Source of the DNA: a virus
Strand: one strand, 5' to 3'
UHGV virus genome: UHGV-0274736
Length of the DNA stretch: 13,898 nt
A program made the translations under genes and the position numbers. The stretch's first letter is position 1, and every line of letters starts with the position of its first letter. This document shows positions 3,456-11,217 of the stretch, one piece after another. The notes beneath the pieces are model-generated. The model was not told the DNA's origin. It saw nothing but the letters and a program-made list of their open reading frames with translations, and made no database searches.

Positions 3456-4163
3456 TCACTCTCCTTTGATGCGAATGCCTGCGGCGCGGATTGCAGCGAT
3501 GACTTCAGAAACTTTGTATGCCATTACCGTTTGGTAATCATCGTGAAAATCTGTTCGATGAAGCATGCTGCTACGTTCCGGGAGCGATATTTCCCGAGCA
3601 TCCAGTTCCTTAACGCGTTCCTCCAGTTCGTAGACCCTGCATTGTTCTCTATCATCAATCAGATATAACCCAAGACATTCGCTTTCTACCCAACCGCCAA
3701 AATCATGATCGTAACGCTCACATGAAAACTCACCGTCACCGTCCTTTGTTGGAATGGTGTAACTATCTAATGGGCCACCATATGTCGGCACATTTCCCAA
3801 TGTTGGATGCTCAATCCACATGAAAAATGCACGTCCGGTTATTGGGCAAATATCTGGCCGCCATTGGTTACGAACAGCCTTGGTTTCGGATAATTCTTCA
3901 GCGTGTTGTTTTACTTCCTCAAGCTCAACTCTCAGCTTCCCCACCGTTAGCGCAATATCCTCGTTCTCCTGATCGCGGCTTTTGATGTATTGCAGGTTTC
4001 TTTCCCGTTCATCCAACAATGCCAGCGCGATATCTGGCGAAAAGTGCTTCATAAAATCGTTAAGCGCATTAATTCGCTGATCGAAAGGCATTACAGGTGC
4101 TTCACCAGCAATTTTTGTTTTTTCAGCGATTTCACGAAGCTTTTGATAATCAATCTTGCTCAC
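3456..4163 (-). CDS. Ea22-like protein (235 aa)
   Basis: GTG start with AGGAGG SD; segments LLDERERNLQYIKSRDQENEDIALTVGKLRVELEE and C-terminal AAGIRIKGE resemble recalled conserved N- and C-terminal regions of lambda Ea22, with a divergent middle region. Confidence 0.5.
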   Translation of the reverse strand: MSKIDYQKLREIAEKTKIAGEAPVMPFDQRINALNDFMKHFSPDIALALLDERERNLQYIKSRDQENEDIALTVGKLRVELEEVKQHAEELSETKAVRNQWRPDICPITGRAFFMWIEHPTLGNVPTYGGPLDSYTIPTKDGDGEFSCERYDHDFGGWVESECLGLYLIDDREQCRVYELEERVKELDAREISLPERSSMLHRTDFHDDYQTVMAYKVSEVIAAIRAAGIRIKGE

Positions 4164-4404
4164 TGGTTGCCTCCTGCTTTTCTGCCTTCAACACCATGCG
4201 AGAACCATCATCCAGCTCCCACACGATCTCACCACCTTCAGCCATGACCAGTTGCCACACCAATTGAGCAGCCTCATTGGTAACATCACGACCTAGATCA
4301 TTGCCAACTCGCATACGTCCACCTTCAACATCGCGCATTTTTGCCAGCATGATAGTTTTTGATAGCGGTGAAAAACCAAGCTGTAGTCGTGCGGAATTAC
4401 TCAC
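4150..4404 (-). CDS. Hypothetical protein (84 aa)
   Basis: GTG start with AGGAGG SD 6 nt upstream; 3' end overlaps Ea22-like start; same strand and operon context. Confidence 0.55.
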
Positions 4405-4568
4405 TGCTTGCCTCCTTTACGCCACATCGCATTCAGATATTTGTTGTCATTAACAGAGCCGAAACTATTTCTCTTAAGCAATTCCTCTCTCGATGGCATT
4501 GGCTTTACGCGTTGGCGAATAATCATTTCTGCCGGAAGAATGCCGGGATTGTATGCAAGTCCTCTCAT
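4401..4568 (-). CDS. Hypothetical protein (55 aa from internal Met; track ORF extends to 4601)
   Basis: TAAGGA SD 7 nt before ATG at 4566-4568, directly after the stop of the upstream gene; the longer track ORF start at 4601 lacks an SD and would overlap the upstream gene. Confidence 0.45.
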
Positions 4569-4578
4569 GGTAAATTCC

Positions 4579-4875
4579 TTAGTCATTACTGATAGCGCCA
4601 TAGCGTGAGCGGTAATTACGCAGACGCGGGTCGATATATTCAGGGAATTTGTCTATTGTCGCTTTTCGCAACGGTCTCATTGCTGTTTCGTTTGTTCGGT
4701 CCTTCTCCTGTTTTAGCGCGAGTTGTATATCGCGTCGGTACTTCCGTTCTTCTTTTGTTTCTGGTGGCAGAGCAAGAAACGCGTCGAGATTATTCTTGAT
4801 ATTTTCCAGCACCTCCGATATGGAATTGCCGGAACAGCGGCGCGGGTCGTCCGCACCATATAGAGGCGCTGGCAT
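4579..4875 (-). CDS. Hypothetical protein (98 aa)
   Basis: Complete minus-strand ORF in operon context; weak SD; no recognised motif. Confidence 0.5.
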
Positions 4876-4898
4876 AATGGGAGCCTTATTTTCAGTGA

Positions 4899-5486
4899 TC
4901 AGAAAGGAGGGTAATCGTTCTGGCTGTAACCATAATCATCTGCATGATTATGGCTTACGTTTTTAGAGCGATTGTCTTTATCTTTGAGGCTGGCAACCAT
5001 GTTGGCGATAGTTTCTGGTTGCTTGCCTTCCGCCTTTTCTTTAAGGGTTTGACCTGTTTGTGCAATAAACGGGATGCGTATTTCCATCTGGTAGCTGTCT
5101 GCGCCAGTCTTTTTGTTTGTGGTTAATACTTTCTGGAGCACTAACCCGATTTTCTTTCCATGAAATTCAGGTGCAACAAATTTACTGGCGGAAACCATAT
5201 GTTGCGTTAATTGTCCAATCCCGGCACACCCCATCATGGCGTGAACGACATTTGTGCCAAATTTGTTTTCCGTTCCGTCATTTTTCTGAACACAGACGCT
5301 AAGATATTGGATTTTACGTCCGTCGTCGGATTCGCCAGAAAACTCAATAAATTTGGCTCCTTTTTCTGATTGCTTTAGTTCTGCTTCAGTAATGGTAATG
5401 ATATGAGCGCCAGTTTCGTTAATAAAACCGCCTTGTCCTGCGGTCAGTGCTGCTTCTTCGTTATAAGTAAAAATCACGCTGATCAT
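4899..5486 (-). CDS. SSB-like recombination accessory protein, DUF669-type (195 aa)
   Basis: N-terminal pattern G-x-F/Y...ITEAELKQSEKGAKFIEF typical of DUF669 as I recall it; acidic C-terminal tail ending DDYGYSQNDYPPF resembles the SSB C-terminal DDDIPF tip; ATGA overlap with the upstream ATPase gene. Confidence 0.55.
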   Translation of the reverse strand: MISVIFTYNEEAALTAGQGGFINETGAHIITITEAELKQSEKGAKFIEFSGESDDGRKIQYLSVCVQKNDGTENKFGTNVVHAMMGCAGIGQLTQHMVSASKFVAPEFHGKKIGLVLQKVLTTNKKTGADSYQMEIRIPFIAQTGQTLKEKAEGKQPETIANMVASLKDKDNRSKNVSHNHADDYGYSQNDYPPF

Positions 5487-6163
5487 GCGGCGTTTTCCTT
5501 AATTTGATGAACATTATTGATGCCGTAGTAATCACAAACAGTGGCATCGACGAAAGAGAGATCGTTATCAATCTCATTGGAATCAAACATTCCCATTGGG
5601 GATTTAACAGTGTCTGCACCGTTGTTTTTCGTGATGAAAAAGAACTGGTCATCGCGGGTAAGAGTGCGAAGAACTATAGTAAACATGCCTTCGACAGTGA
5701 TTTTCTCGTCCAGCATTTTGCCGATAGTTTTCATTTTCACGCGCCCCATAGGGGTTTCTTCGGTATGGGCAAGAAAATAGACTCTCAGGTCATCAGGCGC
5801 ATCCTGTGCAGCCTTAATGACCTCCCATGCGTGACGGCCTATCTCAGTGAATTTATCAAACGATTTTTCTTCTGAGCGGCGCATAAACTCATTGCTCATC
5901 ACATACTGGAAGTCATCAACAATAACGATTCTTTTCCCGTATTCGTGAGCACGCTTAATTACGGCAACTATTACGTCCCATTTGTCAGTGGTGACTACGG
6001 TTCCTTTTTTTGCTCTGGCATCCCATGCAAGCCAGTCTTTTGATTTAAATGGTAGCGGCTTGCCTATTGGTTTTATAAGTATTGCTTCCTCGGGATTGAT
6101 ATTTCTCATGCTGGTTGATTTTCCGGTGCCAGACTCACCGAGTATTAATGTCGCAGTTCCCAT
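5483..6163 (-). CDS. Sak4-like RecA-fold ATPase (AAA_24 type, 226 aa)
   Basis: Walker A GESGTGKST near the N-terminus, Walker B RIVIVDDF; size and position next to an SSB-like gene are typical of phage Sak4 recombinases; GAGGTGA SD. Confidence 0.75.
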   Translation of the reverse strand: MGTATLILGESGTGKSTSMRNINPEEAILIKPIGKPLPFKSKDWLAWDARAKKGTVVTTDKWDVIVAVIKRAHEYGKRIVIVDDFQYVMSNEFMRRSEEKSFDKFTEIGRHAWEVIKAAQDAPDDLRVYFLAHTEETPMGRVKMKTIGKMLDEKITVEGMFTIVLRTLTRDDQFFFITKNNGADTVKSPMGMFDSNEIDNDLSFVDATVCDYYGINNVHQIKENAA

Positions 6164-6171
6164 AATTCACC

Positions 6172-6360
6172 TCAGAATGGTAATTCGGATGGAGAGGAAA
6201 GAAACTCGCGCTCATTCATGCGCTCTCTTTGTGCCTGCCATAAAGAAAGTTGTTTCTTTGATTTATCTCCCGCTTTACGCCAGTAACGAGCCTCAGCAAT
6301 GTGATATTCTCTTTTTAATCGACTTAACTCTGGGGTTTTCGCCAGTTCTACCGGAATCAT
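6172..6360 (-). CDS. Small hypothetical protein (62 aa from second Met; track ORF starts at 6372)
   Basis: GGAGG 6 nt upstream of the ATG at 6358-6360; ATGA overlap with kil stop; occupies the position of gam in lambda but is not Gam-like. Confidence 0.45.
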   Translation of the reverse strand: MIPVELAKTPELSRLKREYHIAEARYWRKAGDKSKKQLSLWQAQRERMNEREFLSSPSELPF

Positions 6361-6470
6361 TTTGACCTCCATTTTCTGTAGGCTTCTACGGCTTCACGAA
6401 ACATCTTTTCATCGCCAATAAAAGTGGCGATAGTGAATTTAGTCTGGATAGCCATAAGTGTTTTATCCAT
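6357..6470 (-). CDS. kil: Kil-like host cell-division inhibitor (37 aa)
   Basis: MDKTLMAIQTKFTIATFIGDEKMFREAVEAYRKW resembles recalled lambda Kil; start overlaps cIII stop by 8 nt, as kil and cIII overlap in lambda. The track lists a longer 67-aa ORF with a probably spurious N-terminal extension. Confidence 0.6.
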   Translation of the reverse strand: MDKTLMAIQTKFTIATFIGDEKMFREAVEAYRKWRSK

Positions 6471-6609
6471 TTTTGGGAACTCCTGGCTGATTAAGTACGT
6501 CGATGAGTCGTTTCCATCCGTCACGTAATTTACGGGTGATTCGTTCAAGTAAAGATTCATTTAGTTGGAAGGCACCCATGCGAGCGCCTCCCGCGATTGC
6601 GTAAATCAT
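6463..6609 (-). CDS. cIII: CIII-like protein (FtsH inhibitor, stabiliser of CII), 48 aa
   Basis: Translates MIYAIAGGARMGAFQLNESLLERITRKLRDGWKRLIDVLNQPGVPKNG; the segment ESLLERITRKLRDGWKRLID-LNQPGVPKNG matches recalled lambda CIII; AAGGA SD; below the length cut-off of the ORF track. Confidence 0.8.
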   Translation of the reverse strand: MIYAIAGGARMGAFQLNESLLERITRKLRDGWKRLIDVLNQPGVPKNG

Positions 6610-6633
6610 GGGTGGTTCCTTATGTTGGTTTTA

Positions 6634-7602
6634 TTAGTAGATTATTTTTGTTGCGAATACTTCGCCTTTTACGATGGCTGTTATGATATTTTTAGCAACA
6701 TCTTCTGATGCGCCAACCTTGATAAGGTCAGCAAGTATTTTGTTATTTACTTCTTTCCGGTGAGCTTTATCCTTTGCTCTACGCTCTTCTTCGTCCTTGA
6801 TTCTTTTTTCTTCTGCTATTCTGGCTTGCTCTTTTGCTTCAGCTTCGCGCCGGATTCGTTCAGCCTCCTCCTGTGCTTTTCGGCGTTCTGCTTCAATTGC
6901 CGCCTGCTTTTCTCTTTCAGCTCGTTCTGCTGCCTCTTTTGCTTCGCGCTGTGCTCGTTGCTCGGCTTCAATGCGTTCACGCTCTGCACGTTCCGCTGCG
7001 GCCTTAGCTTCTGCTTCTCGCCTTGCTGCTGCTTCAATTTCGGCTTTTGCCTTTGCTTCGGCTTCAGCTCTGGCTTTCTCTTCAGCTTCTCTTTTTAAGC
7101 GTTCTTCATGCTCTCGCTTTTCCTGCTCCGCTTTGAGTCTTGCCTCTTCTCTTTGGCGGTCAAATTCGCGATCCATCAAAATAGCTATTTCATGGTCAGA
7201 CTCAATTTGCTTTGCGAGAGCTTCAGCTGCTGCCTTAGCTTCTTCTTCGGCTTTAATCCGTGCCTGTTCCTCCTCATAATCAGTAAGAGGCTGGCGCGCC
7301 TTGGCTTTCAGTTCATCAAGGCGATCGCGCACTGTCTTGCGGTTGGCATCAATTAGCTTTGGAATTTCCTTCAGTTCAGCAACAAGGTCTTTGCCAAGAC
7401 CATCGAGATATGTTTTCGTCTGCGCAACTTTATACGCCAGAGAAGCGATCTCCTTTCTGCCCTTTGCCGTTGTGATATCAGGCACAAAGGACATAACTTC
7501 ACGTTCAACCCTTTGAAGGATTTCTTCAATCTGGTCGGCAGACTGAAATACAGTCATTGCATTTGCTTTTTCAATAACAACTAAATCTGTTACTTCACTC
7601 AT
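6634..7602 (-). CDS. Glu/Ala/Lys/Arg-rich coiled-coil protein (322 aa) with globular N- and C-terminal ends
   Basis: GGAGGA SD 5 nt before ATG; about 170 residues of EAKR-type low-complexity repeat (REAEEKARAEAEAKAKAEIEAAARREAEAK...); the plus-strand ORFs in the same interval are antisense artefacts of the repeat. Confidence 0.75.
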   Translation of the reverse strand: MSEVTDLVVIEKANAMTVFQSADQIEEILQRVEREVMSFVPDITTAKGRKEIASLAYKVAQTKTYLDGLGKDLVAELKEIPKLIDANRKTVRDRLDELKAKARQPLTDYEEEQARIKAEEEAKAAAEALAKQIESDHEIAILMDREFDRQREEARLKAEQEKREHEERLKREAEEKARAEAEAKAKAEIEAAARREAEAKAAAERAERERIEAEQRAQREAKEAAERAEREKQAAIEAERRKAQEEAERIRREAEAKEQARIAEEKRIKDEEERRAKDKAHRKEVNNKILADLIKVGASEDVAKNIITAIVKGEVFATKIIY

Positions 7603-8257: not shown

Positions 8258-8881
8258 CTATGCGGCCTCGGAAGGAAGTCCAATCATCTTATTCAAATCT
8301 TCTACCCGTAAAGCAGGAAGTGCTGTACTTGCTTTATCTGCTTCTTTTGGTAGCAACTCTTTGCTTTCAGGCCAAACCTCAATAAGTCGCTTAACTGTTG
8401 TGACTGAGTTTAAAGCAGCCCATACATTTGATTCGATATCCTTTTTCTTGGCTTCAAGTTTTTGTTGTAATGAGCAGATTTCATCAAACCTTTTTGTTAT
8501 TTCGTGCTCTGCGTCAAACATGCATTTATCTTTTGTCGGAGTAGGAAGCAATATATCTTCGCCGTTGCCGTCTTTCCCATATGAATGCCATCCAACCCTT
8601 CTGCCAGATACAGTCAGATAAATTGAAGTAGAACGAACATCGCATGAGTAAAATGAACATCCCATCTTTTCAAGTTCTTCACTTATAGCTACCAACTTGG
8701 ATGATAACTGATCAACTTCCTCAGTTTTCTTTTTACCGCCAAACGCAATAACTCTGGCGTCAAGTGCAAGCTGGTTCTTTAACTTTGTTACTTCTTCAAG
8801 TTCAGTGAAAACCCCAGACTTAATTAAAGCTTTACGAGCGATTTCCTCTTTCATTCTCGTAGTTAAGCGGATTGATGACAT
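8258..8881 (-). CDS. Hypothetical protein (207 aa from Met-21 of the track ORF)
   Basis: GAGAGGA SD precedes the ATG at 8879-8881, whereas the track start at 8941 has none; predicted helical with two Cys pairs (CSFYSC, C...C); no family recognised. Confidence 0.5.
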   Translation of the reverse strand: MSSIRLTTRMKEEIARKALIKSGVFTELEEVTKLKNQLALDARVIAFGGKKKTEEVDQLSSKLVAISEELEKMGCSFYSCDVRSTSIYLTVSGRRVGWHSYGKDGNGEDILLPTPTKDKCMFDAEHEITKRFDEICSLQQKLEAKKKDIESNVWAALNSVTTVKRLIEVWPESKELLPKEADKASTALPALRVEDLNKMIGLPSEAA

Positions 8882-9088
8882 ATTAATTCCTCTCAAATAA
8901 GTGGTTTGCTGCCTAATTTCATTTTCTGGCGACCAACACAAGTCACACCCATTTCACTGCGTGGCTTGCGGTAGTAAAGATTGTGCCTGTCTTTTAACCA
9001 CATCAGGCTCGGTGGTTCTCGTGTACCCCTACAGCGAGAAATCGGATAAACTCTATTCACCCCTACAGAGAGCAAAAGAGAAACGCCG

Positions 9089-9670
9089 ATGAACAACTCA
9101 TGGTGGCAGGAACTAATGCATTTTTTCCTGCAAGGAATGACACTTAAACAGTTGATTCATATGCTAATCATCCTGATCATATTGATTATTGTTATGCCGG
9201 TAAGCGTAAAAGAATGGATAAACCTGCATAATCCAGAAATCCTTCCTCATTATTGGATGTATTACATCCTGTTGTTCTGCGTTAGCTATGTGCTTAACGG
9301 TGTTGTTAATTCCGCTTATCACGCTGTGACTGAAAGAATTGAGGTATCCGCTGCTCAGAAGCGCAAATCTAAAGAAGAAAAATATGTGCAAGATTTGTTT
9401 GATTCGTTAACTCTTGGAGAAAGAGCGTATTTGGCATTCGCTGTAGCCGCGAATAACAAGCTAAAGACAGAAAAGGGAAGCCCCGAAGCAATCTCATTGC
9501 TCGAAAAAGGGCTTCTTATTCGGATACCTTCTGCTACTGGATATCCTGAAATCGACCGTTTTGTTATCCCGGAACGCTATAGAAATGAGTGCTACATTAG
9601 GTTTGCTGGGAAGAAAGACAGTCTTATGGATGAACTTATCGCTCAGGATAAGCATGGCAAAAACAAGTAA
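9089..9670 (+). CDS. sieB: Superinfection exclusion protein B
   Basis: MNNSWWQELMHFFLQGMTLKQLIHMLIILIILIIVMPVSVKEWINLHNPEILPHYWMYYILLFC... matches recalled lambda SieB; convergent with N as in lambda. Confidence 0.85.
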   Translation: MNNSWWQELMHFFLQGMTLKQLIHMLIILIILIIVMPVSVKEWINLHNPEILPHYWMYYILLFCVSYVLNGVVNSAYHAVTERIEVSAAQKRKSKEEKYVQDLFDSLTLGERAYLAFAVAANNKLKTEKGSPEAISLLEKGLLIRIPSATGYPEIDRFVIPERYRNECYIRFAGKKDSLMDELIAQDKHGKNK

Positions 9671-9686
9671 TTAGCAAATGATTTTA

Positions 9687-10070
9687 TCATCTCGCCGTCA
9701 GTTGTTTTGATTTCCTGTAGCCTGCCGCGTAAATGGCTACGTTTGGAAGACATACACCAGTTTCTGGTTGCTTATGTCCAAACTCATTCGCGTACACAAT
9801 GGCCGCTCGCTCCAGATTGCGTCTGTATTCTTTCTGTTGCCAGATCACGTCCTGTGCCATGAACTTAATTGGCTTAGCGTCTTCTATGCGCTCAGGCGTT
9901 TCGTGAGCACCTTTAGCCTGAATCTGCGCTCTGCTTAGAGTAGGGCGGTGTAATACTTCTGAACTTATTGCTTCTTCGCGGGCCAGCACGCCGTTAGCTA
10001 ATGCCTTTGCCTTTAAACGCTCACGACGACGAGAACGTGAATTGCCTTTGAACTGAGTTCTGCGTGTCAT
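9687..10070 (-). CDS. N: N-type transcription antiterminator (127 aa) with N-terminal arginine-rich motif
   Basis: AGGAGG SD 6 nt before ATG; N-terminal GNSRSRRRERLKAKA is an arginine-rich RNA-binding motif like lambda/P22 N; sits directly downstream of a boxB-like hairpin and pL-like promoter. Could alternatively be a Nun-type factor. Confidence 0.7.
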   Translation of the reverse strand: MTRRTQFKGNSRSRRRERLKAKALANGVLAREEAISSEVLHRPTLSRAQIQAKGAHETPERIEDAKPIKFMAQDVIWQQKEYRRNLERAAIVYANEFGHKQPETGVCLPNVAIYAAGYRKSKQLTAR

Positions 10071-10472: not shown

Positions 10473-11132
10473 TTAACTAAATGTCTCTTCAGGCCACTGG
10501 CTGGCGATAACTTTCCCTACTACGGAACAGCTATCATTGCATGGGATCATTGGATATTGCGGGTTTAGTGGTTGTAGGAACACCTGACCGCTATCCCTGA
10601 TCAGTTTCTTGAAGGTAAACTCCTCACCACCAAGTCTGGCTATGCAGAAATCACCTGGCTCAACAGCCTGCTCAGGGTCAACGAGAATTAACATCCCGTC
10701 AGGAAAACTTGGCTTGGATCCTGTTGGTGCGGTCATGGAATTACCTTCAACTTCAAGCCAAAACGCACAATCACTGGCTTTTTTGGTTGTGCTGACCCAT
10801 CTCTCCGCATCACCTTTGGTAAAGGTTCTAAGCTCAGGCGAGAACATCCCGGCCTGAACATGAGAAAAAACAGGGTACTCATATTGTTTTTTTACGGGGG
10901 CAGATGAGTATTCGCCAACAGGTGAAAATGTACCGTCGTGGTTGAATGAGACGTTATCAATACCAAGGTATTTAAACACCACACCAATCTCGTCAAGAGA
11001 TGGATGACGAGATCCGCGCAACCAGTGACCAATTCCACCCTGCGTCATACCAAGCTCTTCAGCTAACTTCTCTTGAGTTATGCCGAGCTCTTTCATTCTG
11101 GATCTAGCCAGTTCATACCATTTCATTTTCAT
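10473..11132 (-). CDS. cI: CI repressor: HTH (XRE-type) N-terminal domain plus lambda-type LexA-like S24 autopeptidase C-terminal domain
   Basis: C-terminal roughly 130 aa ([21 protein letters not shown]...GNSMTAP...[27 protein letters not shown]...) match recalled lambda CI including the Ala-Gly cleavage site and Ser/Lys dyad; N-terminal domain differs from lambda. Start is ambiguous (ATG at 11132 or 11126); the track ORF start at 11207 would run through the operator region. Confidence 0.85.
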
Positions 11133-11188
11133 ATCCTTATTATTACGCTCTGTACTAAAACCATCCATGCACAAGATGTATTTTTTGT

Positions 11189-11217
11189 TTGCATTCCAAG
11201 AGTACATATCGTATTAT
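11189..11217 (+). promoter_or_regulatory. pR-like promoter with operator OR candidate in the spacer
   Basis: -35 TTGCAT (11189-11194), 17-nt spacer, -10 TATTAT (11212-11217); spacer contains AGTACATATCGTATT (11201-11215), nearly identical to the OL palindrome. Confidence 0.5.

Follow-up and report, generated by a model that had tools for sequence, protein, structure and literature searches.

A probable HK620-type recombination module with a Sak4-like annealing ATPase and an atypical SSB in a lambdoid prophage

The window analyzed here is the whole 13,898-nucleotide stretch of the virus genome UHGV-0274736. Positions 4899–6163 are filled exactly by two minus-strand open reading frames of the ORF list, which encode proteins of 226 and 195 residues. 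The two genes belong to a module of four co-oriented genes, hkaM-sak4-ssb-abc2, in the slot between kil and the Ea22 region, where the original prediction had placed the pair. The genes of this part of the window are:

3456..4163: Ea22-like gene
4401..4568, minus strand: hkaI homologue (DUF2737; Pfam DUF2737 match of 2.7e-30), marking the downstream limit of the HK620-like block
4579..4875, minus strand: abc2, anti-RecBCD protein 2, directly downstream of ssb and the fourth gene of the module
4899..5486, minus strand: ssb (hkaK homologue, "SSB-2"), encoding a 195-residue protein predicted to be an atypical OB-fold ssDNA-binding protein
5483..6163, minus strand: sak4 (hkaL homologue), encoding a 226-residue RecA-core-only ATPase, a putative single-strand annealing protein
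6172..6360, minus strand: hkaM homologue, encoding a 62-residue protein at the head of the module
6357..6470, minus strand: kil (37 codons), which bounds the module upstream
6463..6609, minus strand: cIII (Pfam Lambda_CIII, 1.9e-24), upstream context

The 226-residue protein contains the Walker A motif GESGTGKST at residues 9–17 and the Walker B motif RIVIVDDF at residues 78–85. Residues G9, S11, G12, G14, K15, D83, and D84 are invariant among 37 homologues. The 195-residue protein ends in ...HADDYGYSQNDYPPF (also given as ...DDYGYSQNDYPPF), and the codons of its last six residues, NDYPPF, are located at positions 4902–4919. The stop codon of sak4 and the start codon of ssb overlap as ATGA at positions 5486–5483, read in the sequence gccgcATGAtcagc. 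The ORF list and the sequence thus bear out the original description of a Walker A/B ATPase joined to a 195-residue protein by an ATGA overlap. Shine-Dalgarno-like sequences precede both starts, GAGGTG in the case of sak4 and AAGGAAA in that of ssb. A scan of positions 4300–6700 for promoters and terminators yielded nothing above chance.

Phage genomes were searched with tblastn, which identified phage HK620, whose corresponding genes are named hkaL (Sak4) and hkaK (SSB). Pairwise comparison showed that 224 of the 226 residues of the ATPase are identical to HkaL (99%), and 190 of the 195 residues of its partner are identical to HkaK, also named SSB-HK620 (97%), including the C-terminal NDYPPF. 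The ATPase matches PHROG 2872, "Sak4-like ssDNA annealing protein", at 1.6e-107 and PHROG 124 at 1.5e-5, and the 195-residue protein matches PHROG 743, "single strand DNA binding protein", at 1.7e-65. Given these profile matches and identities, the two genes are not chance open reading frames. The similarity to HK620 extends beyond the pair: positions 4420–6558 of the window align with cIII-kil-hkaM-sak4-ssb-abc2-hkaI of HK620 as one continuous block of 2141 base pairs with 94% DNA identity. The two substitutions in Sak4 and the five in SSB are located outside the Walker motifs and the tail.

The flanking genes follow the same pattern. The 62-residue HkaM is read from the second ATG (position 6360) of a 66-residue ORF at 6172..6372, and this ATG overlaps the stop codon of kil as ATGA. 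It is identical to HK620 HkaM at 60 of 62 positions (97%) and matches PHROG 1723 at 6.6e-32. A 62-residue gene in the position of gam had been noted in the original prediction, correctly as to its presence, but the "unknown" protein is HkaM. The kil gene corresponds to the last 37 codons of the ORF 6357..6560, and Pfam Lambda_Kil matches residues 32–62 of this 67-residue ORF (4.1e-21); 36 of the 37 residues of Kil are identical to those of HK620 Kil. The hkaI homologue is near-identical to HK620 HkaI.

The product of the fourth gene matches the Pfam family Anti-RecBCD_p2 (PF11043) at 5e-40, with a score of 136 bits (cut-off, 25), and PHROG 656, "abc2 anti-RecBCD", at 1.4e-45. It also matches the P22 Abc2 structure 8b1t over its full length (1.4e-36). 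Abc2 of the window shares 65 of 98 residues (66%) with Abc2 of HK620. The two Abc2 proteins are mosaic relative to each other, with near-identical ends and a divergent middle, while the flanking genes are 97–99% identical. The Pfam and PHROG scan covered 20 window ORFs of at least 48 residues, including every ORF of the early left operon from int to N, and detected no homologue of Gam, Bet/RecT, or Exo/YqaJ in any ORF of that operon. The original statement that neither an exonuclease nor a Gam homologue is recognizable is literally true, but it missed the RecBCD-modifying Abc2 encoded downstream.

Proteins of the Sak4 family have been defined as shorter than 290 residues, with a single domain that lacks the RecA C-terminal, Rad51 N-terminal, and DnaB domains (Lopes 2010, PMC2896510). 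The window ATPase has the size, the Walker A and B motifs, and, in its predicted structure, the RecA/Rad51 core fold of this family; the model comprises one alpha/beta domain with a pLDDT of 86. The Pfam family AAA_24, which had been proposed as a check along with a Sak4 profile, is matched only marginally above its cut-off (8.1e-7; 29.5 bits, cut-off 27). Searches of the PDB with Sak4 alone and with a profile of nine Sak4 sequences returned P-loop noise only. It is highly improbable that the 226-residue protein acts in replication or packaging, for instance as a helicase loader, a terminase-like NTPase, or a motor of the DnaB/KaiC kind, and not as a recombinase, the outcome that the original prediction had named as its refutation. 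As judged from the profiles and the predicted structure, the window ATPase is a Sak4-type annealing ATPase. The 90% identity clusters of Sak4 and SSB comprise 1407 and 1036 member sequences, respectively.

The 195-residue partner is predicted to have an OB-type fold, as anticipated in the original prediction, and residues 177–193 have pLDDT values below 50, as in a disordered tail. A Foldseek comparison of the model with viral models identified similarities to proteins named DUF669 and to SSBs of N4-like phages, in agreement with an HHsearch link to N4 gp45 published earlier. The terminal phenylalanine is kept in at least 90% of the SSB homologues. No Pfam match to the classical bacterial SSB family (PF00436) was found for the 195-residue protein, a PDB search with a profile of 34 SSB homologues retrieved no SSB, and NCBIfam provided no usable match. 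Because the PDB searches by sequence and profile were uninformative for both SSB and Sak4, structure prediction was needed. According to the model, the fold is SSB-like (OB), yet the protein is remote from bacterial SSB.

Assignment of the 195-residue protein to DUF669, as originally predicted, was not upheld at the level of the profile. The Pfam family DUF669 (PF05037) does not match it even at E ≤ 10. A profile search of 1.84 billion representative sequences provided 669 representatives, and one of the 62 distant SSB relatives drawn from them matches DUF669, weakly (E = 0.0066). None of 120 SSB homologues has a precomputed Pfam domain, although many are named DUF669 by NCBI. Membership of the protein in PF05037 was therefore rejected, and the DUF669 label survives as a name in NCBI and UniProt annotation and, in the structural models, as a fold-level resemblance.

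The near-identity to the HK620 proteins, the profile matches, and the predicted folds support the central element of the original prediction, that a Sak4-type ATPase and an SSB-like partner take the place of lambda gam-bet-exo. We consider it very probable (roughly 0.92) that this locus of a lambdoid prophage is a homologous-recombination (Rec) module of the HK620 type, whose genes would be transcribed leftward from pL, following N, cIII, and kil. The identity and order of the genes, the sequence motifs, the predicted folds, and the conserved adjacency of sak4 and ssb are direct results of the present analysis. Nothing in the sequence argues against such a module.

The biochemistry of the HK620 pair has been published. 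HK620 Sak4 binds ssDNA and anneals complementary strands, both only in the presence of ATP, and it does not perform strand exchange in vitro (PMC5928155). HK620 SSB stimulates annealing by Sak4 and raises recombineering from approximately 15-fold to approximately 210-fold over background; deletion of its last six residues, NDYPPF, causes a 10-fold drop and abolishes the binding of Sak4 to SSB-coated ssDNA (PMC5928155). Abc2 and HkaM have no added effect in HK620 oligonucleotide recombineering (PMC5928155). Abc2 of P22 binds RecC and redirects RecBCD (PMC5928155, PMC12315714). Since only two and five positions of the window proteins differ from HK620, outside the key motifs, they may be expected to follow the same pathway, and the window Sak4 would, by analogy, bind and anneal ssDNA in an ATP-dependent manner and support recombineering. 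The window alleles would then behave as the HK620 pair, and the role of Abc2 would be that known from P22.

In the proposed sequence of events, Abc2 would bind RecC of the host RecBCD and stop its response to Chi, as in P22, which would turn it into a resecting enzyme that produces 3' single strands at the ends of phage DNA. The phage SSB, with its atypical OB-fold, would coat the resulting ssDNA, and the DNA-bound SSB would recruit Sak4 through the C-terminal NDYPPF tail. Sak4 with ATP would bind the ssDNA and anneal complementary strands. The module could in this way support recombination-dependent replication, repair, and mosaic exchange, standing in for Gam, Bet, and Exo of lambda and for Arf, Erf, Abc1, and Abc2 of P22.

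The pair might instead serve mainly in phage DNA replication or in protection of ssDNA, for example, in a switch to rolling-circle replication or in shielding from host nucleases and defense systems, with annealing as a side activity. The RecA-independent crossover recombination by HK620 Sak4 and SSB in vivo is weak, 500-fold below that of RecA in conjugational crosses (PMC5928155), which would suit this explanation, as would the implication of lambdoid Rec modules in the theta-to-sigma replication switch (PMC12315714) and the occurrence of the SSB family together with RecT, Exo, and Gam-like modules, so that it is not tied to Sak4. However, annealing and recombineering have been demonstrated directly for the HK620 proteins, and recombination-dependent replication is an accepted role of such modules, which makes a replicative function compatible with the HK620-type recombination module. 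As a separate explanation, a main role in replication or protection is decidedly unlikely.

The C-terminal PSELPF of HkaM shows no variation between the E. coli copies and that of Salmonella phage g341c, in which an HkaM homologue with 66% identity is encoded between kil and erf; the copies compared include window positions 6172..6360 (minus strand), L006 2501–2689, and L002 4127–4315. The record of Salmonella phage GE_vB_TR, which is marked UNVERIFIED and is full of frameshifts, was left out of the comparison. PSELPF resembles protein-docking tails of SSBs, namely DDDIPF of E. coli SSB and NDYPPF of SSB-HK620. HkaM heads modules with unrelated annealases, Sak4 in the window, HK620, and HK629 and Erf in g341c, and is thus not specific to Sak4. 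HkaM could conceivably imitate an SSB tail and, by recruiting SSB-tail-binding proteins or competing for them, tune host or phage recombination, although this is a speculative and rather improbable idea, with the motif noticed after the fact in five sequences that represent two diverged forms. The label "recombinase" attached to HkaM in PHROG and RefSeq looks like a leftover of an old "arf" annotation.

The recombination block lies in a mosaic left arm. DNA similar to that of lambda is restricted to patches at positions 396–2033 (attP core, int, and xis; 97.9%), 6368–6558 (kil-cIII), and 10479–10883 (the C-terminal half of cI), along with four further segments of about 100–120 base pairs; at the recombination module, the homology to lambda DNA ends at kil-cIII. 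The original prediction recognized the swapped recombination module correctly, but the otherwise lambda-like left arm in which it placed the module appears, from these DNA comparisons, only patchily lambda-like, and the recombination block HK620/P22-like. Positions 1–395 have no DNA match to lambda 27000–40500, the attP-int region that was compared. Because the lambda attP core begins at position 396 and the preceding segment lacks a match to lambda, the window covers the left prophage end, most likely flanked on that side by host DNA; it would then start at a junction of prophage and host at an attachment site of the lambda type. The cI-like repressor gene (10473..11207, minus strand) has a lambda-like C-terminal half (94%), whereas the half encoding the N-terminal DNA-binding domain differs, which indicates a putative hybrid immunity region.

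Several neighboring genes were characterized in passing. The pL-operon gene at 8258..8941 (minus strand) encodes a 227-residue protein with the Pfam domain Nmad5 (nucleotide modification associated domain 5; 2.3e-69); phage APC_JM3.2 has it under the name "Smchd1". Positions 6634..7602 (minus strand), between the Nmad5 gene and cIII, encode a highly charged 322-residue protein of PHROG 1376 with a long stretch rich in E, A, K, and R, for which related phages have the annotation "TolA" or "cell envelope biogenesis protein". Within the leftward pL operon but on the opposite (plus) strand, just downstream of N (9687..10070), positions 9089..9670 contain a superinfection-exclusion gene of the SieB type (Pfam, 2.2e-25), an arrangement as in lambda.

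The position of the window at a prophage end, with a probable host flank at 1–395 followed by the lambda attP core and int, and the limited coverage of the window by any isolated phage, at most 41% in one place, could be taken to mean that the genes are non-functional relics in a defective prophage. Against this reading, the four ORFs are all intact, with conserved motifs, the tail, translational coupling, and ribosome-binding sites present; the few substitutions relative to HK620 are outside the key motifs; and the int, xis, N, cI, cro-side, and O genes around the module are also intact. Decay of the module is barely conceivable.

The HK620-type module is widely distributed. Lambdavirus HK629 contains the same Rec module in the same order, kil-hkaM-sak4-ssb-abc2-DUF2737. 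At least 80% of the block is held by 65 phage records, including many Stx1a and Stx2a phages, and by 180 of 5426 complete E. coli genomes. Beyond these close relatives, sak4 is followed by an SSB of the same family in phages of Enterobacter, Acinetobacter, Pseudomonas, Shewanella, and Moraxella, identified in part by hmmsearch, and the sak4-ssb order also occurs in three metagenomic or genomic contigs. The pair of the window has a 79% match to the locus of an Enterobacter phage (L005). The SSB homologue of Enterobacter phage vB_Ecl_MII_001 (L005 3001–3582) is annotated "putative repair nuclease", apparently in error, as no support for a nuclease was found. In Anaerostipes phage AC844P1 (L012 2141–2743), sak4 is followed by an ORF of 200 residues with the SSB-like C-terminus ...EEIPFN; this ORF has no match to the SSB-2 profile or to any Pfam family and, judging from its position and ending, may be another divergent Sak4-partner SSB.

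The SSB is also found next to other recombinases. A copy with 86% identity follows RecT, Exo, and Gam-like genes in Stx2a phage P13374 (L003 4001–4588) and in an E. coli contig (L015 2501–3088), and the DNA homology of the window to a locus of the P13374 type is limited to the SSB gene. The combination of SSB and RecT was noted for TL-2011c in a 2025 survey (PMC12315714). The RecT-associated SSBs end in YGSDSF or YNYDQF, in place of NDYPPF in the window. It was considered whether the tail co-varies with the partner, with "...PF" next to Sak4 and other endings next to RecT; however, the Sak4-adjacent SSBs end in GDFEQF, DDDIDF, YANQDF, NDYPPF, and DDAPF, and only the final phenylalanine is constant across both groups, so the idea was rejected.

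The recombineering and tail experiments that the original prediction proposed were published for the HK620 pair in 2018 (PMC5928155), and the finding is thus already known; a 2025 paper on module exchange in this slot distinguishes 13 types of lambdoid Rec modules and lists that of HK620 among the well-studied examples (PMC12315714). The gene pair is a studied model for the annealing of SSB-coated DNA by a RecA-core-only protein. The window is a textbook case of lambdoid module shuffling and has little import beyond correct annotation: E. coli prophage genes labeled "AAA family ATPase" and "DUF669" or "hypothetical protein" should be read as Sak4 and its cognate SSB, Abc2 should be annotated with sak4-ssb as one unit, and two database labels, "recombinase" on HkaM and "putative repair nuclease" on SSB, lack support.

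The closest known system is the HK620 Rec module, hkaM-hkaL(sak4)-hkaK(ssb)-hkaJ(abc2) (Clark 2001; Hutinet et al. 2018, PMC5928155), with which the window shares the genes, their order and overlaps, and the flanking kil and hkaI. HK620 is a P22-like podovirus with IntS, whereas the window has lambda-type int, xis, and attP and a different immunity region. HK629, the Stx1a- and Stx2a-converting phages, and E. coli prophages match the window at approximately 97%, not 100%, and have other genes around the module, a difference to be expected of mosaic lambdoid genomes.

Lambda Red (gam-bet-exo) occupies the same slot after kil in the pL operon and performs the same job of RecBCD control, ssDNA making, and annealing. 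However, Bet of lambda is Rad52-like and ATP-independent, whereas the window annealase has a RecA fold and would be ATP-dependent; the window module encodes its own SSB, lacks a nuclease of its own, and would use Abc2-modified RecBCD. The arf-erf-abc1-abc2 module of P22 has an Abc2 homologous to that of the window and a similar slot for a small gene after kil, but its Abc1 is absent from the window. Both in P22 and in the hkaM-erf-ssb-nuclease-abc2 modules of the g341c/epsilon34 type, the annealase is the Rad52-like Erf, not Sak4; the SSB of the latter modules is of the classical type. Sak4 of staphylococcal phages, whose structure was determined with SaPI2 Stl (PDB 8rc5), and Sak4 of lactococcal phage phi31 (PMC2896510) have 13% identity to the window Sak4; they are from phages of Gram-positive bacteria and are partnered by SSBs that come closer to the classical type. 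The SSB of the window can be compared to PrgE of plasmid pCF10 (PDB 8s4s) and to phage SSBs of the N4 gp45 type. PrgE is 14% identical to it and also binds dsDNA and forms filaments, whereas SSB-HK620 has been reported to be a tetramer with a tail like that of E. coli SSB (PMC5928155).
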